A DNA stretch of 64,000 nt from Chloroflexota bacterium. Lineage in GTDB: Bacteria; Chloroflexota; Dehalococcoidia; Lucifugimonadales; UBA2985. A program made the position numbers and the translations under genes. The notes beneath the pieces are model-generated. The model had not been told where the DNA came from and did no database searches. It was given only the letters and a program-made list of their open reading frames with translations. Where the stretch lies: assembly GCA_028877205.1 (NCBI GenBank), contig JAPPHY010000007.1, positions 236,766-300,765 of the forward strand, written 5' to 3'. The first letter of the stretch is position 1. Every line of letters starts with the position of its first letter. Below are positions 17,461 to 53,394 of this stretch, piece by piece.

Positions 17461-17584
17461 TTCTCACCTCCTCAAGGGTCTCTACTGCAACCCGCAGCCT
17501 GATTCGACTGGCACACCGCCGCGCCTCTGGAATGGCGGGCAACCGGATTGTAACCCAGCAGCCTGCACAAGTCGAGCCGCAAAG

Positions 17585-20017
17585 CTATCGCAGCCTGAAC
17601 AGGACGGCCCACTTGATGCGGCTCCACGCACTCGCCAGCCCGTCCGACTCCGTAGAGTCCGGCCGCGAGCCGCCGTATCTGTGCCGCACGTAGGCATGCG
17701 CCACAAGCTCCACCTCCGATCGAGCATCCGGTATCAGGGTCGAGAGGCTGTGCGAGTACTCGATGGCCGTCTGCGAGGACGGTGCGCGAAAGCCCAGCAA
17801 GGCCGCCAGGCGCTGCATCCTGCGGTAGGCGGCCTGCGCGGACCAGGGAGCGCCGTACTGGGCAACCCACAGGATGCGCATCACCGCCGCTCCAGCCAGC
17901 ATGAAGCCAGCGAACATGAGACCGCCCGCGCCGAGCGGCGTCCCGAACCTGAAGTTCGGCTCACGCGACGCCTCCTCGTCCGCGGCAGTGGCATCGGCCT
18001 CCACTGCCACCGATCGCTCTTGAGGCGACAGCTGGTCCGGGCCGCGTGGCCGCACGGGGTAGATGGGCGTTGGCTCGAATGGCGCCCAGCCTAGGCCGGG
18101 GAAGTAGACCTCCGGCCACGAGTGGTTGTGGTTGTCGCGCACCAGGAACCCCTCCGGGTCTGCCTCGCCGGGCCCGAAGCCGAGCACAAGCCGCGTGGGT
18201 ACTCCCTGCGTCCTCAGCATCATCGCCATTGCGGAGGCAAAGTAGTCGCTGTAGCTCTCCTGCGACTCGAACAGGAAGTAGTCCACCGCGTCCGCCTCGT
18301 TGGGCAGGAAGATCGGGACGCCGCTGTACTCGAACTCACGCAGGTGGGACTCGATGGCCACGGCCATGTCGTAAGGGTTGGCTGCGCCGTCCACCAGCTC
18401 GGCGGCGAGAGTGGACACCCGATCAGGCAGAGACGGCGGTATCTGGAGGTATCGCTCCACAATGGCGGGAGGATAGTCCCGCGGCGCGGCGCGCAGGGCT
18501 TCCTCGTCGGCGATGAGTATGTCGGATTCGACGGCGTAGCTGTTGCCCAGCCCAAGCTGGCCCTGCGTGGTGAAGAGCACGGGGGAGCCCTCCAGAGGCG
18601 CGCGTACCACGTCAAGCGCGATGGTGCGGCCGGGGCCATCCAGCGCGCTCCGCAGGTCGTCGGCGTACGTCGGCGATGCGGGGTCTACGGCCACGACCGA
18701 CTCCTCGCCTGCCGGGCCTGCCGGCTTTACGACGGCAGACACGCGCAGGTCGTCGGGCAGCCGCGATACGTTGGGTGGGCCCGTCGTGGAGGCCAGCGCC
18801 GCCTCGAGGTCGCGCAGGTCGCCGGCGAGGCCATCACTGCGGCCGGGCTCGGCCAGATCCAGCCGGTATGCCGGAGAGGCAGGAGCTTGCAACTGCGCGT
18901 CGGGGTCTACGTCCGCGGGAGTTCCGGCCATGAACAGGTACGGCGTCTCCACGTAGAGGTACACGGTGTAGACGGTTGGCCGCGTGTGAGGAGGCCCATC
19001 GCCTTCTCCAGAGGCAGGCGCTTCCGGCGGGGGGAGCACGTCCTGCGTTGCCGTGTCCTGCACCTTCCACACCTTGGACGTGTAGTGGTCGTACGCCACC
19101 GCCGACCAGTAGTACGGGTAGTCGGCCTCCGCAAAGAGGATGGGTTCGGTGCTGTTGGACACAGGCCTCACGAGCGACAGCACGGAGCCGAGGAACCGAA
19201 CGGAGAGTATCTCACGGTCACTCTGGCCGCCGAAAACGCGGCGCACCTCGTCGCGTATCTCGCCCCTTGCCGTCCCGTTCACTGGGTTGTAGAACCAGTC
19301 CAGGGGCGACGCCGGCGTCTGGCCCAGCGGCAGCGTCGCTGCAACAAATACCAGAGCCGCGCTCGCCCACAAGCCGTGCGTCAGCGACATTCGATGCAGC
19401 GATGCGGGATGCGCCACGCTGTCCGCCTGAAACTCGTCTAGGCGTCCCCGAATGGTGGAGTGCGCGATCATGAGCAGGCAAAGCAGGAGGAACGGCCACA
19501 GGTATGGAGACGTGCTTCCGGGCTGGTATGTAACGTTGATGACTGTGACTGCGCCCACCGGCAGGATGGTCATCCACACACTGCGGTAACGCAGGAATCC
19601 CAGCGTGGTCAGGTAGGACATGGCCCACGTGAGTGCCGTTATGGTAACGGACAGCGGCAGCCGGTCGGAGATGGGATCGCCGCTGCCGACGGCCGAGAGC
19701 CAGCTGCTGAGGCCGGTGATGAGCGCGCCGAGCTTGTCGAACAGCCCATCGCCTTCGGCGACGATAATGCCGCAGGCGCATGCCGCGAGCATGCCGGCGG
19801 CCAATGCCCGAAGATGAAGGTATGCGCGCCTCTCCTCGGACGCGAAGGCGTGGGCGGCGAGTACGGCTGCCAGGAAGGCCGCCGGCGCAAGAATGGGGGC
19901 GCTCACCCAACCGGCGAACTGCAGCGACAAGGCCGCCGTAACCAGCAGGGCCGCCTGAAGCCAGAAGGCCGCGCCGGCCCTTTGCAGGAAGCCCGGAATG
20001 TAGGCTGATAGTGGCAA
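17585..20017 (-). CDS. Transglutaminase-like domain membrane protein (TgpA/DUF3488-like)
   Basis: About 6 N-terminal TMs, a large middle domain, the core YSDYFASAMAMMLRTQGVPTRLVLGF...HSWPEVYFPGLGWAPFEPT, and a C-terminal TM. TTG start. Confidence 0.8.
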   Translation of the reverse strand: MPLSAYIPGFLQRAGAAFWLQAALLVTAALSLQFAGWVSAPILAPAAFLAAVLAAHAFASEERRAYLHLRALAAGMLAACACGIIVAEGDGLFDKLGALITGLSSWLSAVGSGDPISDRLPLSVTITALTWAMSYLTTLGFLRYRSVWMTILPVGAVTVINVTYQPGSTSPYLWPFLLLCLLMIAHSTIRGRLDEFQADSVAHPASLHRMSLTHGLWASAALVFVAATLPLGQTPASPLDWFYNPVNGTARGEIRDEVRRVFGGQSDREILSVRFLGSVLSLVRPVSNSTEPILFAEADYPYYWSAVAYDHYTSKVWKVQDTATQDVLPPPEAPASGEGDGPPHTRPTVYTVYLYVETPYLFMAGTPADVDPDAQLQAPASPAYRLDLAEPGRSDGLAGDLRDLEAALASTTGPPNVSRLPDDLRVSAVVKPAGPAGEESVVAVDPASPTYADDLRSALDGPGRTIALDVVRAPLEGSPVLFTTQGQLGLGNSYAVESDILIADEEALRAAPRDYPPAIVERYLQIPPSLPDRVSTLAAELVDGAANPYDMAVAIESHLREFEYSGVPIFLPNEADAVDYFLFESQESYSDYFASAMAMMLRTQGVPTRLVLGFGPGEADPEGFLVRDNHNHSWPEVYFPGLGWAPFEPTPIYPVRPRGPDQLSPQERSVAVEADATAADEEASREPNFRFGTPLGAGGLMFAGFMLAGAAVMRILWVAQYGAPWSAQAAYRRMQRLAALLGFRAPSSQTAIEYSHSLSTLIPDARSEVELVAHAYVRHRYGGSRPDSTESDGLASAWSRIKWAVLFRLR

Positions 20018-22178: not shown

Positions 22179-22255
22179 GGGCGGTTAGCTCAGCTGGTTA
22201 GAGCGCTTGCTTCACACGCAAGAGGTCAGTGGTTCAAGTCCACTACCGCCCACCA
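22179..22255 (+). tRNA. tRNA-Val (anticodon CAC)
   Basis: Hand-folded cloverleaf: GGGCGGT/ACCGCCC acceptor, GCTC/GAGC D stem, CTTGC-TTCACAC-GCAAG anticodon arm, AGTGG-TTCAAGT-CCACT T arm, encoded CCA. Confidence 0.9.
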
Positions 22256-22329
22256 TCAGGCCTGATAAGATCAAGGACCTTCAAATTGCGGCTCGAGCTG
22301 GGGTGTAGCTTGGGCAACGACGAAGGAGA

Positions 22330-24264
22330 ATGTTTATGGACAACGTCATCTCCCTTGAGTATCTCTTCCATAAGCGCCTGTTCAACGTGCCCGACTACCA
22401 GCGGGGCTATGCTTGGGGGCGTGAGCAGATCACAGACTTTCTTGACGACCTGGACATTCTCTCCCCCGGGCGTTTCCACTATACGGGCACTGTCGTATTG
22501 CACCGGCGCGCTGACAAGCCGGAGGTTGAAGACGAGGGCGGGAACACTTACTCCCATTTGGACGTCGTGGACGGACAACAGCGCCTAACGACTATAGTGT
22601 TGCTTCTAGACGAGATTCAAAAGGCACTGCGTGATCCAGATGCCGCGGTGGTGCCACCGCTGGCGCTAGGAATCTCTCGCAACTACATCGCCGCCACCGA
22701 CCCCAACGGCCAGCTCATTCGCAAATTGACGCTCAACAGGGATACAAAGAGCTTTTTCCAGTCTTACATTCTGGACGGAGACCACGCATTTCAGGCATCC
22801 AACGCCGCTCACATGCGACTTAGGGATGCACAGTCCCAAATCCGGAACCACATTTACCAGCACATCAGCGGATTGGATGGTACGGAGAGGATCGATTGGC
22901 TGCGAGATTTTCAGGCTAAGGTCACCCAGCGCTTGGGGTTCACCCAGTTCATTGTTGATGATGAGGCGGAGGTTGGAGTCATATTTGAGGTCATGAACGA
23001 CCGCGGCAAGCTACTCACGGACTTGGAGAAGGTCAAGAACTATCTCCTCTATGTCGGGAGTACCGTGGGCTTCGACAACCCAATCGCCGATGAGGTCAAT
23101 GAGGCTTGGTCGCACATCTTCGGGCAGCTTATGTCGGCGGGACTAACTAGGCCAGACTATGAAGACCAGCTCCTCCGAGTGCACTGGCTCTCACACTACA
23201 ACCCTCAGAAGAAGAACTGGGAAGGGGCCAAGAGCATTCGACAGAGATTCGATCTGCGAGCGTATAGGGACAGAGGTCAGGACTTGGTGAGGGATGTGCT
23301 GGAGTACACGCGTACCCTGCGGGCCTGTGTTGTACCACTCTGTGACGCATATCAGCCGCAGCGGCAAAGCGCATTCGCCGCATTTCACTCTGGGCCTGCC
23401 AAGTCTGGCGCTGTGGCATGGGGCACGCGATTGCGAAGAACGAATACCCTTGCGACCTTCCTTCCGCTTCTTCTTGCAGTTAGAGCCAGGTGGCCTGAAG
23501 ATGCGGCGACGTACCTGGAATTCGTTAGGCTCAGCGAAGTATTCGCATTTCGGGTTTACCGGTTCATCGGTGCCCGGGCCGATTACGGTGAATCGGCTCT
23601 GTATCGCCTAGCCCACAATGTGGCGCGGGGAACTGAGTCCTTTGAAGGAGCCATGGGGCGCTTCAAGCTAGAACTCTACTCGCGATGCTCGGATGAGAAA
23701 TTTCATGTAGCCCTCAGCGAAGGGAACGAGCTCATTCAAGCCGCTTACGGCAAGCGTTACCTGCGCTACTTCCTCTATGAGTATGAGACTCACCTCGCAG
23801 ACACTAAGAAGACTGAGCCGAGGGTGTCGTGGGAGGAAATACAGAGGGAGGATCTCAGAGACACTATCGAACACGTCCTTCCGCAAACGATAGACGGCCA
23901 ACGCTATTGGCGCTCGCGGTTTTGTGATCACGGTGGAGAAGTCCACGAGCGCTACAAGCATGACTTAGGCAATCTTACATTGACGAAGTGGAACCCCCAC
24001 TATGGCAACAAGTCGTTCCCTGAGAAGAGGGGAAGCCTGGGACAAGAGACAGAGTACTGCTATGCAAAGGCGCCGTTCTTCTCGGAACAGGAGTTGGCCG
24101 GTTGGTCGGACTGGGAACCCTCAAGCATCGATCAGAGGCGCGAGAACTTGCTAGCGTGGGCAAAGGAGCGGTGGAGGGTGGACTTCAGTGGGATTACGAA
24201 GCAGTCCCCGGAGGAGGAGCCGCCGGATGACGAGAGCGAGGAAGATCAAGACTCAGGGGACTGA
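22330..24264 (+). CDS. DUF262/DUF1524 protein (GmrSD-like type IV restriction enzyme family)
   Basis: The N-terminus has FNVPDYQRGYAW and DGQQRLTT (DUF262). The C-terminus has IEHVLPQT...DLGNLTLTKWNPHYGNKSF (DUF1524, His-Me finger-like). ATG 22336 has better spacing to gaaggag than 22330. Confidence 0.85.
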   Translation: MFMDNVISLEYLFHKRLFNVPDYQRGYAWGREQITDFLDDLDILSPGRFHYTGTVVLHRRADKPEVEDEGGNTYSHLDVVDGQQRLTTIVLLLDEIQKALRDPDAAVVPPLALGISRNYIAATDPNGQLIRKLTLNRDTKSFFQSYILDGDHAFQASNAAHMRLRDAQSQIRNHIYQHISGLDGTERIDWLRDFQAKVTQRLGFTQFIVDDEAEVGVIFEVMNDRGKLLTDLEKVKNYLLYVGSTVGFDNPIADEVNEAWSHIFGQLMSAGLTRPDYEDQLLRVHWLSHYNPQKKNWEGAKSIRQRFDLRAYRDRGQDLVRDVLEYTRTLRACVVPLCDAYQPQRQSAFAAFHSGPAKSGAVAWGTRLRRTNTLATFLPLLLAVRARWPEDAATYLEFVRLSEVFAFRVYRFIGARADYGESALYRLAHNVARGTESFEGAMGRFKLELYSRCSDEKFHVALSEGNELIQAAYGKRYLRYFLYEYETHLADTKKTEPRVSWEEIQREDLRDTIEHVLPQTIDGQRYWRSRFCDHGGEVHERYKHDLGNLTLTKWNPHYGNKSFPEKRGSLGQETEYCYAKAPFFSEQELAGWSDWEPSSIDQRRENLLAWAKERWRVDFSGITKQSPEEEPPDDESEEDQDSGD

Positions 24265-24440
24265 GCGGAGACTGCTTAGGTGAGGGCGCTATGGGAGAGT
24301 GGATGACCAGCTCTGTGGTAACGACGACCTTAATCACCTCCAGGGCAGCGCGTGCGGCCTCCTTGCGCCGCGACGTATTTTTCGACCGAGCGGCGCCTCC
24401 CACATGCGTTGGCGCGCCACGCCGGGCGCTTGCGGGACGA

Positions 24441-24515
24441 GGAAGGTTAGCTCAACTGGTTAGCGCTTGCTTCACACGCAAGAGGTCAGTGGTTCAAGTC
24501 CACTACCGCCCACCA
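24441..24515 (+). pseudogene. Degenerate tRNA-Val(CAC) copy
   Basis: The 3' 53 nt (24463-24515) are identical to 22203-22255. The 5' acceptor ggaaggt gives two mismatches, and a 2-nt deletion destroys the D stem. Confidence 0.6.
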
Positions 24516-24587: not shown

Positions 24588-25313
24588 GTGATGACAATTA
24601 GATACGCAGGTCTTGCATTGATGGTGGGTGTGGTCTTGGCTTGGATCGGGGGGCTATTCATGCCGGGGTATACGTTCATAAACCCGGTGGACCAGACCGA
24701 CTTCCCCGCAGCTCGGGACGCTCTGGGCGATTCTGCGATCCTTGCACATTGGATGAATCTTATCATGCTCATTTCGATGTTGCTGATGATATTCGGCTTC
24801 CTGGTACTCTACCCGCTGGCTAGCCGACAAGCTGGTGTGGGAGGCAGGCTCCTGCAGTTTGGCATCATCACCTCCATCATTGAATGGAGTATCCTCATCA
24901 TCGTCGCGGGGGTGAGGCACTTCGAAATCCACCTGATGCAGCGTAGCAAGCTGCCTGCTGACGGGTCTCTGTCGGGGGCGGACTTCGAGGCTGCGGCTCT
25001 TGCCGTTCACGTCGACATGACTGCGGTCTTGTTGGCGTTTGTGGTGCTGTACCCGCTGGCGTCCATCATGGTTGGCCTTGGGATAGCCAAACGGTTCGCA
25101 TCAATCGGACTCTACAAGGGTGCGGGCTACGTTATGGCGGCAGCCGGGCTTTTGGGGCTGGTCAACTTCGTCCTTGCAATGAACGTTCCCGACGTGGGCC
25201 TCCAGACCCAGTACGCGGTTAACAGCATAGCCCTCTATGTTGCGGGAGTTTCCCTGTTCGTCGTCGGGCTCGGCATGTACCGGGGCCGGAGCGAGCTCGG
25301 TGAGGTGTCGTAG
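24588..25313 (+). CDS. Multi-pass membrane protein, paralogue family member 1 (DUF4386-like?)
   Basis: It is similar along its full length to 45091-45816 (IRYAGLALMVGV...QFGII.SIIEWSIL...FEIHLMQRS). ATG 24591 fits the paralogue N-terminus better. Confidence 0.7.
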   Translation: MMTIRYAGLALMVGVVLAWIGGLFMPGYTFINPVDQTDFPAARDALGDSAILAHWMNLIMLISMLLMIFGFLVLYPLASRQAGVGGRLLQFGIITSIIEWSILIIVAGVRHFEIHLMQRSKLPADGSLSGADFEAAALAVHVDMTAVLLAFVVLYPLASIMVGLGIAKRFASIGLYKGAGYVMAAAGLLGLVNFVLAMNVPDVGLQTQYAVNSIALYVAGVSLFVVGLGMYRGRSELGEVS

Positions 25314-26261: not shown

Positions 26262-26942
26262 CTATTGCCACAGGTCGGGGTCGGGGCGGTTCATCATTCC
26301 GAAGCCCAGGTATCCATACCAGATGACCAGCAGCACGTAGCAGCCCCGGGCCAGGCCGATGAAGGCGTCTCGGCCGCCTTCGCTGAGTACGGCCATCATG
26401 AAGAAGACCATTATGGCCAGGCTGACCAGGGCTGCCAGCAGGGAGACTATCCGGTTGAAGTCGTCTCTCGTGGAGAGGCCCAACGCGAATATGAAGCCGC
26501 CAAACCCAAGCGTGATCCCACCGGCATAGACGAGCGCTGAGCCGACGTAGTAGACGGGGACGCTCCCACCGATCTGGTCGCTGGTCTGGGCATCGGCCAG
26601 AATGAGGTCAATGCCGCTGGCAAAAATCCAACCGGTCAGTCCGACGAAGACCATGAAGAAGCCCATTTGGACCAGCGCCTTGCCGTTGCCCTGCAGGGTT
26701 ACATTTCGCATCAGCGCATAGAGGCCCGAGAGGATCAGGGCCAGGCCAAGGATTATCCCGATGTTGGTTATCTTGGACAGCGCGGCGTTGGCGCCCTTGG
26801 CCGTTATAGAGCCAACGGAGTCTGTCACTTCGGCGCTGTCTATCAGCAGTCCACCCGGCTCCAGGAGAAAGAAGACGAAGGCGACTATCGGGCCGAAGAT
26901 GAGGGAGAGACCTGCCAGCCGGTTCACGGATATCGTGCCCAT
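26262..26942 (-). CDS. Multi-pass membrane protein, paralogue family member 2
   Basis: It shares the N-terminal TM plus the PGGLLID motif and overall topology with 48942-49658. Confidence 0.65.
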   Translation of the reverse strand: MGTISVNRLAGLSLIFGPIVAFVFFLLEPGGLLIDSAEVTDSVGSITAKGANAALSKITNIGIILGLALILSGLYALMRNVTLQGNGKALVQMGFFMVFVGLTGWIFASGIDLILADAQTSDQIGGSVPVYYVGSALVYAGGITLGFGGFIFALGLSTRDDFNRIVSLLAALVSLAIMVFFMMAVLSEGGRDAFIGLARGCYVLLVIWYGYLGFGMMNRPDPDLWQ

Positions 26943-27205
26943 GTTTGAACCTCCTTGGTTTCACGTCATGAGAAGGGTCCACCGGGTTCAATCCCTCCCA
27001 GTATACACCCGCACGCCGGAGTTGTGGCATAGACGGTAGTACCACCGGCTCATGCCTTGTCTCGACGCCCGGCTCGTCTTCGATGGCGCAGGCAGCGTTT
27101 CATGTTGGTTGGCCCTGGTTAGGTCGTTCGGACTCGTCACGTCGGCAGTCTCACGGGTCGCAGGAACAGGCGTTAACGGGGGCAGCCACGTCGTTTTCTG
27201 CGTAC

Positions 27206-27271
27206 GGTTACAACAAGTCATACATGTTTCGTCAGGTAGTTACACGCAAGTTACACACGACGTGGTAAAGT
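27206..27271 (+). promoter_or_regulatory. GTTACAC-box promoter module S1
   Basis: GTTACAC at 27239 and 27250 (11-bp spacing), then 9 nt, then TAAAGT 27266-27271 (TG at 27263-27264). It lies 84 nt upstream of the RCC1 gene ATG. Confidence 0.55.
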
Positions 27272-27354
27272 GATTTGGAGCGTACCCACGAAACGAGATG
27301 TGAGAGCTTGCCTTCGCGCGCACGGACGGCCGGATGACACGGCAGGAGGCCTAA

Positions 27355-29277
27355 ATGTCAAACGCCAAAGCAGTAGCAGTGCTGTTCGCCATGTTCCTTA
27401 CCCTAGTCCTAACCGGATGTTCGGAGGAGTCGAGTCCCACGCCGACGGCGAGGGTGGTCCCGAGTCCCACCTTCACAGCGGCGCCTGCTGCACAGCCCAC
27501 GCCCACAGCCGGCACTAGCGGGGCGACCGAGCAGGCCCCGCCCTCTGACGGCGGCTCACTCAGAAGTGAGCAGAGTGGGGTTGCTGCCCAACCCACCGAG
27601 CAGCCTGAAAGTACCCGGTCCGCCAGCGGTAGCTCGACGGTCCCTGCCACCGAAGTGGTGGAGCACGTTCCAGGTTCCTTCCTATCGGTCAGTGCCGCCG
27701 GCGGATTCACGTGCGGCATGCAGACCGATGGATTGCTGGCTTGCTGGGGAAGGAATGACGGAGGCAGGGCTGCGCCCCCGGCGGGGGAGTTCATCGCGAT
27801 TAGCGTGGGAGGAGGTGCTAGTCTCAAGCCTGGCAGCTCCTTATCTACAGACGGCCACGGATGTGGACTGAATACGGACCGTACCCTCGTATGTTGGGGA
27901 AGCAATAGCTATGGCCAGGCCACCCCTCCTGCGGAGGAGTTCGTCTACGTCAGCGCAGGGAACAACAACACCTGTGGAGTAAAGGGAGACGGCTCGGTCG
28001 CGTGCTGGGGTGATGATCAGTTTGGCCAGTCCAGTCCGCCGACCGGGGAGTTCGCCTCGGTCAGCGCCGGGAGAGCGCATGCTTGTGGGGTGAAGACCGA
28101 CGGTTCCGTTGAGTGCTGGGGCGACGGCGCGTTCGGCCGGGGCTCGCCCTCGCCGGGGGAGTATCTCTCTGTCAGCGCCGGGGATGAACACACCTGTGGG
28201 GTGAGAACCGAAGGTTCTGTCGCATGCTGGGGCACTGAACGCTATGGCTTGAACGCGCCTCCGGCAGGAGAGTACATCTCCGTCAGCACTGGATGGCTGC
28301 ACACCTGCGGAGTGAAGGTCGACGGCTCAGTCGCCTGCTGGGGCGCTGAGTGGGATGGCCGCACGACGCCGCCGGCCGGGGAGTTTGTCTCCGTCAGCGC
28401 GGGGATTGATCACACCTGTGGAGTCAGGACGGACGGCTCCGTAGCCTGCTGGGGCGCTGACTATGCCGGCCAGGCAACGCCTCCGGTCGGAGAATTCGCC
28501 TTGGTCAGCGTTGGAGGCGGATTCAGATGGTCGGACGGTTCTGCAGACGGCCACACGTGCGGGGTGCTGAGGGATGGTACCCTCGTGTGTTGGGGCGATA
28601 ACCGGTCCGACCAGGCCGCTCCTCCGAGCGGAGTCTTCGCCTCCGTCAGCGCCGGCCTAATCCATACCTGCGCTGTCGATGTTGACCATTCCGTTACTTG
28701 CTGGGGCAATGATGAAGCTGGACAGTCCAGCCCTCCGGTTGGCGAGTTCGCTTCAATCAGCGCGGGGTATGCACATACCTGCGGTGTAAAGACAGACGGC
28801 TCCATCGAATGCTGGGGCAATGATGAAGCTGGACAGGCTGCGCCACCGTCAGGGGCTTTCGACTCCGTCAGTGCCGGGGGGCTGCACACCTGCGGTATCG
28901 GGACGGACGGCTCCATTGAGTGCTGGGGTAATGATGAAGTTGGGCAGGCTGCGCCGCCTGCAGGGTCGTTCGTCTCCGTAAGTCCGGGAGGCTTTCATAC
29001 CTGTGGGGTCAAGGCCGACGGAACCGTCGTCTGCTGGGGAGAGAATGAAGATGGACAAGCTACGCCGCCGTCAGGGAGGTTCGCCTCTGTTGTGGCTGCG
29101 GTCGTCCACACGTGCGGTATTGTGACGGACGGCTCCATTGAGTGCTGGGGCAATGACGACTATGGCCGGTCTACGCCTCCCATCGGGGAATTCGCCTCCA
29201 TTAGTGCCGGGTGGTTCCACTCCTGCGGGGTGAAGACGGATGGATCGGTCGCCTGCTGGGGAGTGCAACGGCGTTAG
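27355..29277 (+). CDS. RCC1-repeat (beta-propeller) lipoprotein, 14 blades
   Basis: Lipobox LVLTGC|SEE. There are 14 repeats of H.CG(V/I)..DGS..CWG....GQ..PP.GEF.SVSAG. Confidence 0.85.
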   Translation: MSNAKAVAVLFAMFLTLVLTGCSEESSPTPTARVVPSPTFTAAPAAQPTPTAGTSGATEQAPPSDGGSLRSEQSGVAAQPTEQPESTRSASGSSTVPATEVVEHVPGSFLSVSAAGGFTCGMQTDGLLACWGRNDGGRAAPPAGEFIAISVGGGASLKPGSSLSTDGHGCGLNTDRTLVCWGSNSYGQATPPAEEFVYVSAGNNNTCGVKGDGSVACWGDDQFGQSSPPTGEFASVSAGRAHACGVKTDGSVECWGDGAFGRGSPSPGEYLSVSAGDEHTCGVRTEGSVACWGTERYGLNAPPAGEYISVSTGWLHTCGVKVDGSVACWGAEWDGRTTPPAGEFVSVSAGIDHTCGVRTDGSVACWGADYAGQATPPVGEFALVSVGGGFRWSDGSADGHTCGVLRDGTLVCWGDNRSDQAAPPSGVFASVSAGLIHTCAVDVDHSVTCWGNDEAGQSSPPVGEFASISAGYAHTCGVKTDGSIECWGNDEAGQAAPPSGAFDSVSAGGLHTCGIGTDGSIECWGNDEVGQAAPPAGSFVSVSPGGFHTCGVKADGTVVCWGENEDGQATPPSGRFASVVAAVVHTCGIVTDGSIECWGNDDYGRSTPPIGEFASISAGWFHSCGVKTDGSVACWGVQRR

Positions 29278-29361
29278 GGAGCGCAAAAGAAGCTACCTGG
29301 ATGGCCTCACGGAATCCAGAAGTAGGCGTAACCAGGGGTAATCACGCCGTTTTCTGCTTAT

Positions 29362-29427
29362 GGCTACAACAAGTCATACATATTTCGTCCAGAAGTTACA
29401 CTAAAGTTACACACGATGGGGTAGAGT
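29362..29427 (+). promoter_or_regulatory. GTTACAC-box promoter module S2
   Basis: GTTACAC at 29395 and 29406, TAGAGT 29422-29427. It is colinear with S1. Confidence 0.55.
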
Positions 29428-29509
29428 AACTGGAGAGTATGCCGCAAAGCAGCTGTGCGTGTGCGCCTTGGCGTGCACGAAGAGCTGGATGACACAGCGG
29501 AGGGCCAAT

Positions 29510-31591
29510 ATGCCAAGGGCCAAAGCAGTGGCAGTGCTGGGAGCTATGCTCTTTGTCATAATGCTCGCTGGATGTTCTGAAGAGCCTACGCCCGCGTCCA
29601 ACACCAGCATCTACGCCGCGTGGGACAGCAATGTATGGGACATCGGCGCGTCCAGCCAGCACCCGGCGCTTATGGGCGTCGGCCCGGTCTCGCCCGGTGA
29701 CCCGCTGCTTGCTGAGTTCGACCCGGACAATGACGGCGTGATTGAGGAGATGGACATGCGGAGGGCGATAGCTGACTTCTTCGGGCCTTCGCCTACGTTG
29801 AGCCCGGCGGACATGCGGCGGTTGGTCGGCATCTACTTCACCTCTACTCTGACAGCGACGTCAACGGCCACGCCGGAGCCTCGATTCACGGCTATTAGCA
29901 GTGGCTATCTACACACCTGCGCGCTCACTCCAAGAGGGGTCGCCGATTGTTGGGGCCACAACGAGTATGGCCAGTCATCACCACCGGACGGTGAACAGTT
30001 CACCTCCATCAGCAGCGGGAGCCGTCATACTTGTGCCCTTACTCGAGACGAGATCGCCGTTTGTTGGGGCAACGATGAGCACGGTCAGTCATCGCCGCCA
30101 GAGGGCGAGCGGTTCATCGCCATCAGCAGCGGAGGTGAGCTGTTCGCCGGTCAATTATACGACGGACACACCTGTGCGCTTCGCCACGACGGCTCCGCCG
30201 TTTGCTGGGGGGACAACAGCTTTGGGCAGTCATCGCCACCGGAAGGCGAGCGCTTCACATCCATTAGCACTGGAGAAAGGCACACCTGCGCCCTCCGGGA
30301 GAATGGGACAGCCGTATGTTGGGGTCAATCAACCAAAACGCCGAAGGACGAGAGCTTCACTACCATCAGCGCCGGCGAGGAATACACGTGCGCTCTGCGC
30401 GGCGACGGTTCTCCCATCTGCTGGGGGTATAGTCGTGATGGGGCGGCAACTCCTCCGCAAAAAGAGAGGTTTACTGCTCTCAGCAGCAGCGAGGGATACA
30501 CCTGCGGTTTGAGAAGTAATGGCTCGGCTGTCTGCTGGGGGCTGGTCCCTCCTATAGACGCCTCTCCGCTATGGAATAACTTCGGTCAGGCTACGCCGCC
30601 TGCGAGTGAACGCTTCACGGCCATCAGCAGCGGGCCGCTCCACACCTGCGCGCTTCGAGTGGACGGTACGCCTTACTGCTGGGGTGTGGCCGCCTTACCC
30701 GGAGATTCTCTCGACATACCGGTCGCAGAGCATTGGTCAACGTTTGATTCAATACCATTGAAAGAGGAACGCTTCACTACAATCAGCAGCGGCAGCTACC
30801 AGACCTGCGCGCTTCGCAAGGATGGTTCTGATCGCTGCTGGGGGCCATGGGGGGTATCCAGCAGATTCCGTCTCTTGAATGAGGAGAGAGATTTCGTAGA
30901 AAACTCAAGATTTGTCGCCATCGACGCCGGGGAAATGGCCTGCGGGATTCGAGAGAACGGCTCAATAGCCTGCTGGAATTCGGGTTTCTGGCAACCTATC
31001 TCACCTCCGGAGGACCACCGCTTTCAAGCTGTCGGCGTCAGGCGCGACGCCTGCGCCATTAGGGATGACGGCGCTCTTACCTGCTGGGATTGGTCCTATG
31101 AAGATGCAGTAGTGCTGCACGATGGCCCCATCATAGCCATAGGCTTGGGCTACGACCGGGTTTGCGGGCTACGCGAAGACGGATCTCCTCTTTGCTGGGA
31201 CCATGTCGAGTTCAACCAAATGTCCGTCCCAGAAGGGGAACAATTCACCGCAATAAGCAGCGGCTGGGGGTTCGCCTGTGGACTGCGCCAAGATGGGATA
31301 CCCGTGTGTTGGGGCCGAAGCCGAACATCGCCACCAGAAGGCGAGCGTTTCATTGCCATTAGTAGTGGTCGTGACCACATTTGTGCGCTCCGAGAGGATG
31401 GCTCTCCCGTTTGCTGGGGTTCGAATAGCGCAAACCAGACATCGCCCCCGGAGGGTGAACGGTTCATCGCCATCACTAGCGGTGAAGACCATTCCTGCGC
31501 TCTACGAGAAGATGGCTCTCCTGTCTGCTGGGGTTGGAGGGACTTCGGCCAAGCCTCACCTCCGCTACAAGCCACTCCGACTGAGCCATGA
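29510..31591 (+). CDS. RCC1-repeat lipoprotein, 14 blades, with EF-hand/dockerin-like loop
   Basis: Start is ATG 29510 (ggaggg upstream). Lipobox IMLAGC|SEE, DPDNDGVIEEMDM Ca-loop-like segment, and 14 .TCAL..DG...CWG repeats. Confidence 0.85.
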   Translation: MPRAKAVAVLGAMLFVIMLAGCSEEPTPASNTSIYAAWDSNVWDIGASSQHPALMGVGPVSPGDPLLAEFDPDNDGVIEEMDMRRAIADFFGPSPTLSPADMRRLVGIYFTSTLTATSTATPEPRFTAISSGYLHTCALTPRGVADCWGHNEYGQSSPPDGEQFTSISSGSRHTCALTRDEIAVCWGNDEHGQSSPPEGERFIAISSGGELFAGQLYDGHTCALRHDGSAVCWGDNSFGQSSPPEGERFTSISTGERHTCALRENGTAVCWGQSTKTPKDESFTTISAGEEYTCALRGDGSPICWGYSRDGAATPPQKERFTALSSSEGYTCGLRSNGSAVCWGLVPPIDASPLWNNFGQATPPASERFTAISSGPLHTCALRVDGTPYCWGVAALPGDSLDIPVAEHWSTFDSIPLKEERFTTISSGSYQTCALRKDGSDRCWGPWGVSSRFRLLNEERDFVENSRFVAIDAGEMACGIRENGSIACWNSGFWQPISPPEDHRFQAVGVRRDACAIRDDGALTCWDWSYEDAVVLHDGPIIAIGLGYDRVCGLREDGSPLCWDHVEFNQMSVPEGEQFTAISSGWGFACGLRQDGIPVCWGRSRTSPPEGERFIAISSGRDHICALREDGSPVCWGSNSANQTSPPEGERFIAITSGEDHSCALREDGSPVCWGWRDFGQASPPLQATPTEP

Positions 31592-31676: not shown

Positions 31677-33095
31677 CTATGCACGTACGCTCAGGGGAAG
31701 GCGTATGGCCACGGTGACGCCCTGTCCGAGTCCATCGCTTGCTATCGCGATGGTTCCCCCATGCGCCTCGACTATGGCTCGGACGATGGCCAGTCCCAGG
31801 CCCGTGCCGCCTACTCCGTGGCTACGAGCCTGGTCGGTACGGTAGAAGCGCTCGAAGACGTGGGGCAGGTCTGCGGCATCGATGCCGATCCCGTCATCGG
31901 TGACCGAGACGGAGAGCGCCTCGCCGCCATCCAGCCCGGCCCGAATGACAATGCTGCCGCCGGGCTCGGTGCAGTTGATGGCGTTGCTGATGACGTTTCC
32001 CAGCGCCTGGCTCATGCGCATCCGGTCGAGGACCACGTCCGGGAGGTCGCCGGGTAGCTCCAGCGAGAGTCCGACCTGCCGGGCCTGAGCTTGCGGCTGC
32101 CATCGCTCCGCTTCCGCGGTGAGCAGGTCACGAATCGAGACCGACTCCCGTGTGAGCCTCATCCCGCCATGATCGGTCTCCGCAAGCCAGTCCAGGTCGG
32201 TCACGATGCCGCTTAGCCGGTCGACCTCCTGAATGATGTGGTCGGAGGCGCTCTCGGGGGTCTGAAGGCCATCGTGCAACCCCTTCGCCTCCAGCTTGAT
32301 GACGCTCAGAGGCGTATTCAGCTCGTGGGAGACGTCGTTTATCAGACGCCTGCGGAGCTCGCGCTGCGTTTCCAGGGCGGAGGTCATGCGATTGAACGCC
32401 TCGCTCATCCGGCCCAGCTCATCCTCGGACGTGACCGGCAGCCGGGTCGCGTCCCCCTGGGCAATCGCCTGGGTCGCCTCCGTGAGGGCCGTCACCGGCG
32501 CCGTGATTCGCCTGGACAGCCAAAGCGCCAGGAGTATGGCGACGGCGACAGTCAGCGTCCCGCCGATTGCGGTGATGTACAAGAGCGTGCTGAGGAACCC
32601 GTGGGACTCGCTCGACAGGAGATCCCGGTTCACGTCCACGTAAACGTGGCCCACTGGTCGGTTCGAACTCAAATCAAGAATCGTTTCGCGATGCCCGTCC
32701 AGGTTGGGTGCGATGGCTCCAGGCAACAGCTCGGACAGGTTGTCCTTCACCACACGGCCGTCAGCGCCGACGATGACGACTCGCACCCGGTCCTGGTGAG
32801 ATGACTCGGAGTGCTCTTCTTCACCCTCTTCGGACCGCTCTCGGGATTGCTCTCGTTGCGGAGTTCCATCGTAGCCGGCCTCGGACAGCGCCTTGTCCAC
32901 AGTTTCCCAACCGCCCGATGCTGTATACTCGCGACTCAGGTCTCGGGCCAGCTGGACTGCCTCCTCACTCCCGATTTCATCCACGAACACACCCAGGCGA
33001 GACTGCGTGGCGTAGTAGCCCACAGCAACGCTTGTCAGGACGGTGAGGACGACGACGAAAACGGTCGAAGCCATGATTCGCCAGCGTAGTGACAT
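31677..33095 (-). CDS. Sensor histidine kinase (2 TM, periplasmic domain, HAMP, HisKA, HATPase_c)
   Basis: H-box VSHELNTPLS, N/G boxes (NVISNAINCT, DDGIGI, GTGLGLAIV). Confidence 0.9.
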   Translation of the reverse strand: MSLRWRIMASTVFVVVLTVLTSVAVGYYATQSRLGVFVDEIGSEEAVQLARDLSREYTASGGWETVDKALSEAGYDGTPQREQSRERSEEGEEEHSESSHQDRVRVVIVGADGRVVKDNLSELLPGAIAPNLDGHRETILDLSSNRPVGHVYVDVNRDLLSSESHGFLSTLLYITAIGGTLTVAVAILLALWLSRRITAPVTALTEATQAIAQGDATRLPVTSEDELGRMSEAFNRMTSALETQRELRRRLINDVSHELNTPLSVIKLEAKGLHDGLQTPESASDHIIQEVDRLSGIVTDLDWLAETDHGGMRLTRESVSIRDLLTAEAERWQPQAQARQVGLSLELPGDLPDVVLDRMRMSQALGNVISNAINCTEPGGSIVIRAGLDGGEALSVSVTDDGIGIDAADLPHVFERFYRTDQARSHGVGGTGLGLAIVRAIVEAHGGTIAIASDGLGQGVTVAIRLPLSVRA

Positions 33096-33772
33096 CAGAC
33101 GTCCTCCACCACGAACCTGTATCCGGCGCCGTAGACGGTTTGAATGGGCCGATTTCCATCCGTGCTGATCAACTTGCGCAGGCGAGCCACGTGGTTGTCG
33201 ATGGCACGGTCGAACCCGTCGAAATTGTCGTTGAAGGTCAAAGAGATCAACTGGTCGCGGGTAAGCACCTGGTTGGGATGACGCATGAACGTCGATAGCA
33301 GAGCGGTCTGCGCCCGGCTCAGCGCCACGGGTTCTCCATCGACCGTCACAATGCCTGTGGTCTCGTTCAGCATGATGCTGCCGTGTGTCAGGACCTGCTG
33401 GACTTTGCCCTTGACGCGGCGCAGCACGGCCTCGGCGCGCGCGATAAGCTCCTCCGGGTCGAAGGGCTTGACCACGTAATCATCGGCGCCGCTGTCCAGG
33501 CCCATGACCCGTTCGGCGGGGGCTTCCCTGGCCGTCAGCATGATGATTGGAACGTCCGACTCCCGTCGCAGGATCCTGCACAGCTCCACGCCGTCGAGAC
33601 GGGGAAGCATGAGATCGAGGATGATCAGGTCCGGGGCCAGTTCACGGGCCAGGGCCAGGCCGGATTCGCCGTCGTGGGTCACGTCGGCAGAGAATCCCGC
33701 CCGCTCGAAGTACACCTTGACCCAGTTCGCGATCCTCGTATCGTCTTCGATTATCAGCACTGTGCCGCTCAT
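33095..33772 (-). CDS. OmpR/PhoB-family response regulator
   Basis: REC domain (LIIEDD...DLIILDLMLPRLDG...KPF) plus a winged-helix Trans_reg_C (...LRKLI....IQTVYGAGYRF). There is a 1-nt overlap with the kinase start. Confidence 0.95.
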   Translation of the reverse strand: MSGTVLIIEDDTRIANWVKVYFERAGFSADVTHDGESGLALARELAPDLIILDLMLPRLDGVELCRILRRESDVPIIMLTAREAPAERVMGLDSGADDYVVKPFDPEELIARAEAVLRRVKGKVQQVLTHGSIMLNETTGIVTVDGEPVALSRAQTALLSTFMRHPNQVLTRDQLISLTFNDNFDGFDRAIDNHVARLRKLISTDGNRPIQTVYGAGYRFVVEDV

Positions 33773-33905: not shown

Positions 33906-35504
33906 CTAGCCGCCTCCCCGACCCTCGCCGCCTGAGCCATGCTCACCACCGCCTCCGGAGCCGTGCTCGCCGCCGGCCTCTCCGCCGCTGCCATGCTCAC
34001 CACCCGACTCGCTACCGGACTCTCCACCTCCTTCACCGCCGCCGACCTCGGCGTGGGCCACCCATCCGGTGAACGGCGCCTGCGTCGACATCAGGGTGAC
34101 GTTGGCCACCTGACCCGGAGCCAGGTCTACCGGAGTCGTCGGTCCGAGCTCTGTCCCGTTCGACAGGTGCACCTCGATCCTCACCCGGGTCAGGATCTGG
34201 CTGGTCGTGTTCTCCACGGTGCCCTTGAAGGAGTTGCTGGCGGCGTCGTAGCTCAGGATCAGCCGGGCGCCGCTGCGAACCATGTCGAAGGTCTCATCCG
34301 GCGCCAGTTGATTGGCGCTGCTGCCCTCTTCACTGCCGCCGCTACCGCCTTCACCGGACTCGCCGCCACTCTCACTGCCGGAGCCTTCGCCACCTGGGCC
34401 ATGCCCCTCGCCGCCGGCTCCTTCCCCACCGCCGCCTTCACCGCCTTGTCCTGGCGCGTGAGGCACAGGGCCGGTGCCGCTGCAGGGGAACACCTCCAGG
34501 TGAACCACATACCCGTCAAAGGAGACTCCTGCGAGGCTCGGTTCGCTGGAAACCGGCACGCTGGTCTCAGCTGACTGTCCGGGGCTCAGGTGCCCCAGCA
34601 CGTCGGGACCAAGCTCGCCGACTGTCGTAGTGCCCGACTTCAGGTGCGGTTCGGCCTGCACGTAGCAGAGCACTTGAGGAAGCGTGTTCGTTACCAGCGA
34701 CTGGACGGACTGGGTTGTCGGGTCGAACCGAGCGACCACGTCCAGCCCGCCAAGGTTGCCTGCCCAGGTCTCGCTGAGCGGAATGATGGGGCTCGACATC
34801 TCGGCTTCACCGGCCTCGGCGCCCATGCCTCCGCTCTCAGTGCCCTCGGGCCCCTCATTGGCGCCCTCGCTGCCGCTGCCTTCACCACCGGACTCTCCGC
34901 CGCTTCCCTCGCCGCTAGCCTGCGTCCCGCTTCCCTCGCTTCCGCTGCCAACCTCGGCGTGGGCCACCCATCCGATGAACGATGCCTGAGTAGAGGGCAG
35001 GTCGACTGCCGCCACTTCGCCTGGCGCCAGGTCTATCGGAGTCGTAGGTCCGAGCTCGGTCCCGTTAGACAGGTGCACCTCTATCCTGATTCTTGTCAGG
35101 ACGCTGTTGGTGGTGTTCTCCACAGTACCCTTGAAGGAGTTGCTCGCAGCGTCATAGCTGAGGATCAGCCGTGCGCCGCTGCGCACCATGTCGAACGTCT
35201 CGTCCGGCGCCAGTTGATTGGCGCCGCTGCCTTCTTCGCTGCCGGACCCTGCTCCCTCGCCGCCGCTCTCACCACCGGCGCCTTCGCCGCCGCCCTCAGT
35301 GCCCTCTCCACCGCTTCCATGCTCGCCGCTGGACTCGCCTCTACCCTGTTCGGAGACCTCCTGGCTTTCCGTTGCGGTGCCGGACTCGCGGCCTTCCCCC
35401 GTTCCGTTCTCGCCCGTCGTACAGCCGACCAGTATCCCAGCGCCCAGCAATGCCGCCAGGGCCGGCCCTACCAGAAACGTCCTTGTCATCAGCTTCTTGA
35501 TCAT
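33906..35504 (-). CDS. Secreted lipoprotein with three copies of a ~95-aa domain and G/S/E/H-rich linkers
   Basis: Start is ATG 35504 (ggaggaagggaag upstream). Lipobox ILVGC|T. The first and third domains are near-identical (ANQLAPDETFDMVRSGARLILSYDAASNSFKGTVENTT...WVAHAEVG). Confidence 0.7.
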   Translation of the reverse strand: MIKKLMTRTFLVGPALAALLGAGILVGCTTGENGTGEGRESGTATESQEVSEQGRGESSGEHGSGGEGTEGGGEGAGGESGGEGAGSGSEEGSGANQLAPDETFDMVRSGARLILSYDAASNSFKGTVENTTNSVLTRIRIEVHLSNGTELGPTTPIDLAPGEVAAVDLPSTQASFIGWVAHAEVGSGSEGSGTQASGEGSGGESGGEGSGSEGANEGPEGTESGGMGAEAGEAEMSSPIIPLSETWAGNLGGLDVVARFDPTTQSVQSLVTNTLPQVLCYVQAEPHLKSGTTTVGELGPDVLGHLSPGQSAETSVPVSSEPSLAGVSFDGYVVHLEVFPCSGTGPVPHAPGQGGEGGGGEGAGGEGHGPGGEGSGSESGGESGEGGSGGSEEGSSANQLAPDETFDMVRSGARLILSYDAASNSFKGTVENTTSQILTRVRIEVHLSNGTELGPTTPVDLAPGQVANVTLMSTQAPFTGWVAHAEVGGGEGGGESGSESGGEHGSGGEAGGEHGSGGGGEHGSGGEGRGGG

Positions 35505-39973: not shown

Positions 39974-41710
39974 CTAGAACAGCGCTTCGAGGTTCTCCCG
40001 GAGGTTCCGCCACCAGTCTCGGTCAGATCCACGGTCCGGTATGAAATGGACCCAATATGTCCCGTCTTCCTCCACAATGAGCCGCCCGGCAATGGTCACC
40101 ACGCGGTCCGCGGCGATTGTCTGAAAGAGGTCTGTCGGTACGCGTACGCTCACCTGCTGTACGTACTCGTCCCGGTCCATCTCAATCAGCAACTCGTTGG
40201 CGTCTTGAAACACGACTGCGCCTCTGACGCTCACGCAATTATCGCGGAACAGGTCGCCGGCCACCGCAATCTGCGCGGGTGTCGGGATAGGGAGAGAGTC
40301 GAGGTGACACGGTTTTTCGCGCGGCGAGAGCACATCCAAGCTGAACAACACTACCAAGACCAGCGCCCCTATGACTACCAGGCCAACCACCCCCATGAAG
40401 CACCCGCGGAGGCATCCGCCGCCCTTCTTCTCCTCAACCGCCCTCTCCCACCTTTGCGGCTGGTACTCCGCAGACGACATTCCCGCTGTGGCTGCCGGAG
40501 GGCTTCCCTGCGTCTCCGGCTCGCTGGGAATCATTTCAAACTGGGCGGTGGGCTCGCTGTGCGCGAATTGCTCCGGCTGCTCGGCCTCCGGCGACTCCTG
40601 GTCGAGCTGATCGAGCTCTTGGAGCAGCCGGAGCTCCTCTTCATAACCGTGCTGCGCGGCCGCCTTGGCCGCATCGTCCGACCTCCCGGTCAGCCACCAC
40701 TCCGGCGCGTGCATGAAGGCGCGATAGGCCGCGTCCAGGTCGGCGCCCCTTAGAGCGGATGCGCTGCCGGACCCGAACCAAGGCGGAGCCTCGGCCGTAA
40801 CGTCGAGCCACGGCTGGGCCACGTTGAACGCGACGGCGTAGGGCAGCATGGGATCCGACTGGTCCCGAGCGCCCGTATGTTCAGTGCCTGTCAAGGAGTC
40901 TTTCAGGCCAAGCCACTGACCTATCTCAAGCACGCCCGCCTGTGTCGGCGTCAGCATGCCGGTCATCGCCCCTGACGGCATTGCAAGAAACGAGTACACG
41001 AAACCCGCAACCACGCCGATCAGGACGTTCGCCCACCACTGGTCCAGCCATAGAGCCGCCCAGAGCCCAATGCCGGCGCCCGTCAGGATGGAAGCGACCA
41101 GCCACCAATCGCTTCCGTCGTCGGACTTTTGCCTCCTGACCCGCACCGGATTGTCATGGAACAGACCGCGCTGCTGCAGGTAGTCCCCAATCTGGTCGCC
41201 GATGGCGTCCTCGCGCTCATTCATCGCTTCGCGGAGCGCGTCAACCGTAGAGGGGCGCGGCGGCAGGCTGTCGCATATCGTTTGCTCCCAGGCATAGTGC
41301 GTGAGACCCTGTCGGGTAAGCCGAAACAGAAGGCCGACTCTTGTTCCAAGAGCCTCGATCCGCAGTGTGCCGCGCTGGCACATCTCGATGATGGAGGCCA
41401 GCAGCGTTTGGCTCCCTATCGCGTGGCCTTGCAGCGCAGATACCGCAGCCGCGGGCATTGAACCGGGCTGCATGGTTCCGGAGTACCATTGGCTAGCCTC
41501 TGGGGGCCGGTACTTGGGCCATAGCCACAGCACGATGGTGAGCAGCTGTGCCAGGACTACACCTATGGTGCGGAAGACCCAGAATGCCCGCTGCTTCCAG
41601 TCCATCTCCTGGAAGTCGGGAAAGCCGCTTTCGGCGATCGCCCCGGCGGGGTCGATAGCGAACAGTACCCCGATTGTGACAAGGACCGCCACCGCTACCA
41701 GCAGACTCAC
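39974..41710 (-). CDS. Membrane protein, DUF2207-C-terminal-like
   Basis: It has several TMs. The segment ...PPEAS....MQPGSMPAAAVSALQGHAIGSQTLLASIIEMCQRGTLRIE... resembles the DUF2207 membrane-proximal region. GTG start. Confidence 0.4.
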   Translation of the reverse strand: MSLLVAVAVLVTIGVLFAIDPAGAIAESGFPDFQEMDWKQRAFWVFRTIGVVLAQLLTIVLWLWPKYRPPEASQWYSGTMQPGSMPAAAVSALQGHAIGSQTLLASIIEMCQRGTLRIEALGTRVGLLFRLTRQGLTHYAWEQTICDSLPPRPSTVDALREAMNEREDAIGDQIGDYLQQRGLFHDNPVRVRRQKSDDGSDWWLVASILTGAGIGLWAALWLDQWWANVLIGVVAGFVYSFLAMPSGAMTGMLTPTQAGVLEIGQWLGLKDSLTGTEHTGARDQSDPMLPYAVAFNVAQPWLDVTAEAPPWFGSGSASALRGADLDAAYRAFMHAPEWWLTGRSDDAAKAAAQHGYEEELRLLQELDQLDQESPEAEQPEQFAHSEPTAQFEMIPSEPETQGSPPAATAGMSSAEYQPQRWERAVEEKKGGGCLRGCFMGVVGLVVIGALVLVVLFSLDVLSPREKPCHLDSLPIPTPAQIAVAGDLFRDNCVSVRGAVVFQDANELLIEMDRDEYVQQVSVRVPTDLFQTIAADRVVTIAGRLIVEEDGTYWVHFIPDRGSDRDWWRNLRENLEALF

Positions 41711-42001: not shown

Positions 42002-42067
42002 AGTTATAACAGATTATACCATTTCTGTCGATTAGTGACACATAGGTTACACATCCGGTGGTAAAGT
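42002..42067 (+). promoter_or_regulatory. GTTACAC-box promoter module S3 (orphan, no downstream gene)
   Basis: GTGACAC at 42035, GTTACAC at 42046, TAAAGT 42062-42067 (TG at 42059-42060). It has the same spacing as S1/S2/S4. Confidence 0.5.
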
Positions 42068-53084: not shown

Positions 53085-53182
53085 CTGTTACCTCCATTGG
53101 CCGACGAAGATCACCATACTCAGGCCCAGAGAGGGCCGGAGGAAATGGCGTCGACAAGGACATTATACAGATTCCAATTGAA

Positions 53183-53248: not shown

Positions 53249-53394
53249 ACAGGGTGGTGGATAATCCACCCGAAAGATGAGACCCCGCGGCGCCACAGGC
53301 GTGCCGGGCTGCGGCATCAGGGGTCTCGCTCTGACTGCAATCGGTCCTATCGCTCGACAAGCGAAGCCACAGACTGGTAAGGAGGGAGTTAGAG

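Follow-up and report, generated by a model that had tools for sequence, protein, structure and literature searches.

A recurrent direct-repeat promoter module and a candidate fused two-component regulator in a Chloroflexota genome

How uncultured Chloroflexota control transcription is, to our knowledge, almost entirely unexplored. We examined a 64,000-nucleotide stretch of a Chloroflexota bacterium of the class Dehalococcoidia (assembly GCA_028877205.1, contig JAPPHY010000007.1, positions 236,766 to 300,765), referred to here in its full length as the window, in which an earlier note had pointed out four copies of a 66-nt promoter module built on GTTACAC direct repeats. These copies, S1 (27206-27271), S2 (29362-29427), S3 (42002-42067) and S4 (53183-53248), all lie on the + strand, with sequences and coordinates exactly as that note quoted them. 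They are non-random and conserved and most likely represent a real cis-regulatory module of the OmpR/PhoB direct-repeat kind, and the protein that probably binds them is a fused two-component regulator encoded beside S4 (50679-53084, - strand). If true, this would provide a defined operator motif for uncultured Chloroflexota, a candidate sensor-regulator that combines kinase, receiver and DNA-binding domain in one putatively soluble protein, and a first handle on the switching-on of eukaryote-like RCC1 surface lipoproteins in a probable sponge symbiont.

The association of the organism with sponges is probable. A second regulator of the window, the response regulator encoded at 33095-33772, has exact copies in two NCBI metagenome-assembled genomes (GCA_028874055.1, GCA_028874555.1), in a Logan assembly of one run and in ENA scaffolds that bear the name ROBB21. 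These scaffold names, the sole basis for this link, suggest an origin in the coral-reef sponge dataset of PMC8163846. Four related assemblies (L001-L004) have no footprinting power because they are 99.9% identical to the window.

Layout and setting of the four modules

Each module consists of two pairs of heptamers followed by a -10 element. Heptamer 1 (GTTACAA) is separated by 3 nt from heptamer 2 (GTCATAC or GTTACGG), which gives a 10-bp period; after 15 non-conserved nucleotides come heptamer 4 and, 4 nt further on, heptamer 5 (GTTACAC), at an 11-bp period. A -10 hexamer of the form TAnnnT stands 9 nt beyond heptamer 5 in S1-S4, as the earlier note had described, and 8-9 nt beyond it in loci of other genomes. 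When a further upstream heptamer 0 is counted, the distances from one box start to the next are 22, 10, 22 and 11 nt, and the heptamer consensus reads G-T-Y-A-Y-R-N. The same note had divided the module into 11-nt slots, a description that holds for the proximal pair (7+4+7 bp in all four copies) but fails for heptamers 1 and 2, which are 10 bp apart. Its 66-nt extent is too short for S1-S3, whose homology runs on for ~30 nt upstream and ~30 nt into the leader. The reported absence of a -35 element at a 16-19 bp spacing was reproduced: a sigma-70 consensus scan of 26900-29600 yields no promoter, and reading by hand shows the hexamer CACGCA at a distance of 17 nt upstream from the -10 of S1. 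The -10 itself is often extended (TGnTAnnnT), and in S1 and S3 the TG stands one base before it.

The pattern GTKACRC-N4-GTTACAC with at most one mismatch has exactly four matches in the window, namely S1-S4, against 0.02 expected from dinucleotide shuffles, and a tolerance of three mismatches adds only three further matches, weak and unrelated. A heptamer matrix built only from modules outside the window, and scanned as four heptamers plus -10 in the layout above, scores S1-S4 at 32-39 bits; the next distinct site reaches -1.4, shifted registers of S1-S4 reach 0.7 and the best of 10 shuffles 5.5, a test that is partly circular because the training heptamers were chosen by eye. GTTACA hexamers are also unevenly placed, 10 of the 16 in the window lying inside five intergenic control regions. 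The hexamer at 17549 was considered as a box and rejected, as it forms part of the TACAAT -10 of an ordinary TTGTGC-17-TACAAT promoter. Comparison of S1 with S4 bears out the claim that boxes and spacing are kept over spacers, with 23/28 heptamer positions identical and 16/32 of the other non-box positions.

The genes previously named downstream of the modules were recovered with Pfam, which confirms RCC1-repeat proteins after S1 and S2 and an S-adenosylmethionine (SAM)-dependent methyltransferase after S4; a ribosome-binding site and a start codon follow S1, S2 and S4, and are missing after S3. Counted from a decayed heptamer 0 (GCCACGT, 27185-27191), S1 spans 27185-27271 (+), with heptamer 1 GTTACAA at 27207-27213, heptamer 2 GTCATAC at 27217-27223, heptamers 4 and 5 (both GTTACAC) at 27239-27245 and 27250-27256, and an extended -10, TGg-TAAAGT, at 27263-27271. 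Its presumed target is RCC1-repeat lipoprotein gene 1 (27355-29277, +), which encodes a lipobox (LTGC), is served by an AGGAGG ribosome-binding site and has a ~77-nt leader. S2 spans 29341-29427 (+) from a heptamer-0-like ATCACGC (29341-29347) through GCTACAA (29363-29369), GTCATAC (29373-29379) and the two GTTACAC boxes (29395-29401 and 29406-29412) to a -10, TAGAGT (29422-29427), that lacks TGn; RCC1-repeat lipoprotein gene 2 (29510-31591, +) is its presumed target.

S3 (42003-42067, +) is composed of heptamer 1 GTTATAA (42003-42009), heptamer 2 ATTATAC (42013-42019), heptamer 4 GTGACAC (42035-42041), heptamer 5 GTTACAC (42046-42052) and the extended -10 TGg-TAAAGT (42059-42067). Downstream on the + strand there is no credible open reading frame (ORF), no ribosome-binding site and no Rfam match up to E = 1. 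On the - strand, S3 contains a strong, near-consensus sigma-70-like promoter with an extended -10 at 42013-42041 (GTGTCA, 17 nt, TG-TATAAT; 10/12 matches) made of the reverse complements of heptamers 4 and 2, and the substitutions that set S3 apart from S1 and S2 (GTCATAC to ATTATAC, GTTACAC to GTGACAC) are those that create it. This reverse promoter points at a DUF2207_C gene (39974-41710, -) ~300 nt away and, together with the missing + strand ORF, indicates that S3 may serve that gene.

S4 spans 53162-53248 (+), with heptamer 0 ATTATAC (53162-53168), heptamer 1 GTTACAA (53184-53190), heptamer 2 GTTACGG (53194-53200), heptamer 4 GTTACGC (53216-53222), heptamer 5 GTTACAC (53227-53233) and a -10, TATACT (53243-53248), without TGn. 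The presumed target is the SAM-dependent methyltransferase gene (53395-54216, +), an arrangement that is syntenic in L025, a related locus introduced below. The methyltransferase leader (53255-53400, +, ~140 nt) contains a strong GC-rich hairpin and a second stem ending at the ribosome-binding site; it folds at -60.3 kcal/mol (z = -2.65) and matches no Rfam family. A known structured RNA in the leaders was rejected: in the window only tRNAs reach Rfam gathering scores, and the leaders of related loci likewise gave no Rfam match.

A tentative fifth site lies at 55830-55870 (+), where a 22-bp tandem repeat, GTTGTAACAT[T/G]CGGGTTAA, occurs twice (0.01 expected) and holds TTGTAAC, the reverse complement of GTTACAA, twice at a 22-nt spacing. 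This repeat, perhaps a fifth site, in inverted orientation, for the regulator of the modules, is ~170-200 nt upstream of a giant fn3/cadherin-repeat gene and was not found in the other fetched loci. The giant ORF (+) extends from 55976 past the end of the window at 64000, and its translation probably begins at GTG 56033, behind aggggagg. Its product has a signal peptide and a Pro/Thr/Glu-rich linker of 12-nt repeats (56213-56464), followed by approximately seven units of ~890 nt that carry fn3 and cadherin-like domains. In other genomes, homologues of the fused regulator likewise adjoin genes for giant proteins (1,566-4,096 aa), which lack Pfam domains.

The fused regulator and related loci

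The gene divergent from S4 (50679-53084, -) encodes a single polypeptide with the Pfam architecture GAF-PAS-HisKA-HATPase_c-Response_reg-Trans_reg_C, in which HisKA, HATPase, receiver (REC) and DNA-binding output are joined in one protein. It belongs to a family of more than 120 cluster representatives at 70-79% identity, labelled Chloroflexota or Dehalococcoidia, which occur in non-syntenic contexts and sometimes as two divergent copies (L010), and whose recognition helix reads PMRTIVxKLRRKL. A consensus scan places the promoter of the window gene at 53162-53190 (-), with TTGTAA (53190-53185), 17 nt and TATAAT (53167-53162) at 10/12 matches. Read in reverse complement, heptamer 1 supplies the -35 of this promoter, and heptamer 0, exactly 22 nt upstream of heptamer 1, supplies the -10. 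Among seven loci fetched for close homologues of the regulator (L010-L013 and L024-L026), all have the corresponding arrangement of cAATTATGCC, 13 nt and heptamer 1.

No regulator gene lies divergent from S1 or S2, but both modules have decayed versions of this -10 (GCCACGTCG and ATCACGCCG) at the same distance. In their 30-nt upstream flanks, 16-19 of the 30 positions agree with the flanks on the regulator side in other genomes (null 7.5 +/- 2.4; P(>=16) ~0.001). S3 has its adjacent flank and the start of its leader in common with S1 and S2, but is without the decayed -10 element. The simplest reading of the decayed elements together with the flank similarity derives S1 and S2 from a bidirectional control region of the regulator type, which would make them a clean example of a control region copied along with relics of its original divergent promoter.

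Conservation in related genomes, proposed earlier as a check, was found, as the layout recurs in other Chloroflexota loci. Two box pairs at the same distances, with an in-register TAnnnT on the strand pointing away from the regulator, are present in L010, L011, L013, L024, L025, L026 and L014, while L012 has the distal pair only. With L015, which is near-identical to L014, counted in, this amounts to eight loci divergent from fused-regulator homologues and a weaker ninth. L025 is syntenic with the window, a methyltransferase and MarR lying alongside, and L026 has MarR alongside. In nine upstream regions of 330 nt, GTYAYA occurs 18 times on the strand away from the regulator, against ~1.5 expected (background 0.00049 per nt). 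A metagenome search with the fused regulator contributed three usable relatives, L014 and L015 among them, and upstream regions were read for L016 and for L014, the latter rather than the near-identical L015. The L014 homologue (57% identity, recognition helix AIRTFVRRLRSKL) keeps the 2+2 layout with GTCACA/GACACC boxes; the match in L016 is partial, beginning at query residue 187, and the DNA upstream of it is GC-rich and coding-like. Close fused paralogues exhibit no clear co-variation of recognition helix with box sequence; only the distant L014 differs in both.

A strict pattern for the proximal pair and -10 (RGTKACRC-N3-RGTTACAC-N8-GTANNNT), applied to 185,579 species genomes, matched four loci, and the source species was not among them. 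Two of these, L006 in Mogibacterium and L008 in Nanhaiella, look like chance matches. The others, L007 and L009, are orthologous Dehalococcoidia loci that on relaxed rescanning contain three complete modules each within 8 kb (L007, 3300-5260; L009, 1840-4700), two of them divergent, ahead of genes for small proteins (membrane or unknown) and for an SWM-repeat protein. As there is no regulator gene in the fetched 8-kb stretch of either locus, detached copies of the regulon type also occur elsewhere in the class. The best RCC1 homologues in other genomes are at most 50% identical, and two loci fetched for such homologues (L029, L030) have no module, so that regulon membership may be lineage-specific.

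Two of the related loci have distinctive predicted module transcripts. In L011 (~9700-9870, -) and L024 (~5690-5830, -) the transcript would start with a small ORF, with a TTG start after GGGAGG, that crosses a 12-C run translated into Pro-Pro-Pro-Pro (...GNGALxxPPPPD...). The ORF may encode a leader peptide on which ribosomes stall at polyproline, or the run may be a homopolymer tract prone to slippage. L010 has the conserved start of the same leader (CCCGGACTGGCCG) and, beside its divergent fused-regulator pair, a group II intron domain (17583-17683, -; Rfam RF00029, 66.6 bits) near transposase genes.

Proposed mechanism and its alternatives

The best explanation, in our judgement, is that the modules are regulator-controlled promoters whose heptamer pairs would be bound by dimers of the OmpR/PhoB family, with the fused protein as the likeliest binder, a reading to which we assign a probability of roughly 0.55. 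Two winged-helix regulator dimers would occupy the two head-to-tail heptamer pairs on one helix face. The proximal pair, at about -39 to -22, would sit beside the -10 at the place of the missing -35, where the bound regulator might touch RNA polymerase in pho-box-style class II activation or might alternatively block it. The distal heptamers of S4 extend over both the -35 and the -10 of the divergent promoter, so that one bidirectional control region could combine autoregulation of the sensor-regulator with driving of the neighbouring methyltransferase; coverage of both elements of the regulator's own promoter suggests negative autoregulation there. S1, S2 and S3 would be detached copies of this cassette, S1 and S2 putting the two RCC1-repeat lipoproteins under the same control and S3 possibly acting on the DUF2207_C gene through its reverse-strand promoter. 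We infer the identity of the binder, the sign of regulation and the transcription starts from the sequence.

Several observations weigh against this explanation, and are given here and beside the alternatives that they favour. The proximal pair is weak or absent in L011, L012 and L013, only four loci in the entire species scan match the strict pattern, and the RCC1 homologues fetched from other genomes lack the module. A different regulator that controls the fused-regulator genes would be equally compatible with the positional association, and the recognition helices of the fused paralogues are nearly identical, which leaves specificity among them unexplained.

Both regulators that the earlier note had named as candidates exist as genes by Pfam; they are not equally likely, since the module is found repeatedly beside fused homologues and overlaps the promoter of the fused gene at S4. 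The other candidate belongs to a classical pair (31677-33772, -) of a histidine kinase (31677-33095) and an OmpR-type response regulator (33095-33772), which might bind the same operator module and would then control the RCC1, methyltransferase and fused-regulator genes, an arrangement that we regard as unlikely. The pair is encoded immediately downstream of RCC1 gene 2, it is a conserved single-copy system in the lineage (75-83% identity), as would suit a global regulator, and the best NCBIfam matches of its regulator are PhoB and MtrA. The recognition helix of that regulator, AIDNHVARLRK, resembles what we take to be the helices of PhoB, WalR and MtrA, which are closer to it than to PMRTIVxKLRRKL, and the MtrA box, GTCACA, resembles GTYAYA. 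The boxes of PhoB and WalR, TGTCAYA and TGTWAH respectively (PMC4168254), also resemble GTYAYA. Nevertheless, the module is positionally tied to fused-regulator genes and not to the classical pair; a matrix scan detects no module upstream of the classical operon in the window; and the orthologous loci L027 and L028, which keep the operon (a gene of unknown function, regulator and kinase), have no RCC1 neighbours and no module even at five mismatches. Because its orthologues have neither modules nor RCC1 neighbours, the location of the pair next to the RCC1 genes appears incidental, and its role as a local regulator of those genes was rejected as the primary reading.

The sign of regulation may also be considered. 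The claim that an activator replaces the -35 stands as far as the -35 is absent, but this absence alone is no proof of activator dependence when many copies have an extended -10. By eye, 10 of the 14 modules examined have TGn ahead of the -10, and such promoters may be active with no activator bound, which would speak for repression. The heptamers would then be repressor operators, and a regulator bound at about -39 to -22, and over the divergent -35 and -10, would shut off promoters that otherwise fire alone; the coverage of both elements of the regulator's own promoter by the distal heptamers at S4 and in its homologues agrees with this. We judge repression at the modules to be quite unlikely, as S2, S4 and L011 have neither TGn nor -35 and would be very weak promoters unaided, and as the boxes lie 9-10 bp upstream of the -10 and face it. 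The pho box classically activates from this position, where PhoB takes over the role of the -35 in recruiting sigma-70. Repression through multiple direct repeats is nonetheless known within the OmpR/PhoB family, as described for ArcA (PMC4173790).

Accounts in which no dedicated regulator acts on the heptamers are less satisfactory. The copies might be left over from promoter DNA that was duplicated, or might belong to a dispersed or mobile repeat, their repeats being devoid of binding function, an idea that draws on the tandem duplication of the genes behind S1 and S2 and on the similarity of S1-S3 in flanks and leader start beyond the boxes. This is highly improbable: boxes and spacing are kept while spacers diverge, both between S1 and S4 and across genomes, the layout survives a changed box sequence at the L014 locus, and the GTTACA hexamers are concentrated in intergenic control regions. 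No inverted repeats flank the copies, and a miniature inverted-repeat transposable element or other mobile repeat was rejected for lack of inverted repeats of at least 10 nt around S1, S3 or S4. We consider it extremely improbable that the heptamers form the -35-type element of an alternative sigma factor, for which a conserved motif upstream of a conserved -10-like box without a canonical -35 could be cited. The spacers to the -10, 9 nt from the proximal heptamer and 20 nt from the distal one, are incompatible with the 16-19 nt of such an element; the -10 is of the sigma-70 type with TGn; and four- to fivefold repetition on one helical face is typical of transcription-factor operators.

A broader proposal, which we hold only tentatively, is that the module is a portable, bidirectional and self-regulating promoter cassette of an expanding and putatively cytoplasmic GAF-PAS-kinase-receiver-winged-helix family in Chloroflexota. 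Regulator-less copies with a decayed -10 would have been pasted before lineage-specific surface or eukaryote-like repeat-protein genes (the RCC1 lipoproteins, possibly the giant fn3/cadherin protein), and the regulon would grow by cassette duplication rather than by point-mutational gain of sites.

The window has some further features of note. Two copies of tRNA-Val, one at 22179-22255 and one at 24441-24515 whose 5' end is divergent, lie on either side of a gene for a GmrSD-type restriction endonuclease (22330-24264). GC is lower (0.56) in the stretch around this gene, at 22-24 kb, and 22179-24515 looks like an island integrated at the tRNA gene. In the stretch of lowest GC in the window (0.52), 11702-13810 (-) may be a defence gene; its 702-aa product weakly matches, at the N terminus, QatA, the ATPase of the Qat anti-phage system. 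Two paralogous 241-aa genes without Pfam domains (24588-25313 and 45091-45816), 20.5 kb apart, have 74% nucleotide identity over 300 nt, and an FxLYD-domain gene upstream of the classical regulator contains an internal 300-nt duplication at 83% identity (34036-34335, 34942-35241).

Comparison with known direct-repeat operators and hybrid regulators

The geometry is that of pho-box-type OmpR/PhoB operators, as had been proposed, with repeats at a 10-11 bp period, approximately 10 bp from a -10, no -35, and Trans_reg_C regulators associated with the sites. The pho box of Escherichia coli similarly has two 7-bp direct repeats with a 4-bp spacer, facing the -10 and ending ~10 bp upstream of it in the place of the -35. 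Its core, TGTCATA/TGTCACA (PMC4168254), is close to the GTCATA, GTCACA and GTTACA boxes. Unlike the E. coli element, the module has a second pair at 10-bp spacing 22 bp further upstream, its -10 is often extended and its likely binder is fused to a kinase. Membership in the Pho regulon proper was rejected, since the two regulators of the window score 207.6 and 159.5 bits with the NCBIfam PhoB model against a cut-off of 296.2; none of the identified targets (RCC1 lipoproteins, methyltransferase) is phosphate-related.

PhoP core sites of Bacillus subtilis consist of four TT(A/T/C)ACA repeats at 11-bp periodicity, and the repeat agrees with GTTACA at 5 of 6 positions. Streptomyces PhoP recognizes 11-nt direct-repeat units, usually two or four and at least two being needed, near the -35 (PMC2275107), and these tandem units resemble the present ones in having ~7 conserved and 4 variable positions. 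The module differs from both in its two pairs split by an unoccupied turn (15 nt), in the 10-bp distal period, and in phylum and regulon content. The WalR/VicR (YycF) box is TGTWAH-N5-TGTWAH (PMC4168254), and the reverse complement of the S1/S2 proximal pair, TGTAAC-N5-TGTAAC, is an exact match to it, on the opposite strand relative to the promoter; WalRK, moreover, is a cell-wall system of Firmicutes. A WalR/VicR regulon was rejected on YycF scores of 156.9 and 143.7 (cut-off 340) and WalK scores below 725. ArcA repeats are phased at 11 bp and contiguous, and differ from the boxes described here in sequence, organism and physiological role. ArcA is characterized as an OmpR/PhoB-family repressor acting on a variable number of direct repeats (PMC3798270, PMC4173790).

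The regulator of 50679-53084 resembles the hybrid two-component systems of Bacteroides in joining kinase, receiver and DNA-binding output. The Bacteroides systems carry AraC-type outputs, whereas the present protein has GAF and PAS inputs and an OmpR-type winged-helix (Trans_reg_C) output. On these Pfam assignments, a Bacteroides-type hybrid with periplasmic sensor, transmembrane segment and AraC output was rejected. Those systems are described as single polypeptides with membrane sensors (PMC11253607). As direct-repeat OmpR/PhoB boxes that replace the -35 are a textbook mechanism, the advance lies in scope and not in principle: what appears to be new is the link between an OmpR/PhoB direct-repeat module and a family of fused, single-polypeptide two-component regulators of Chloroflexota.

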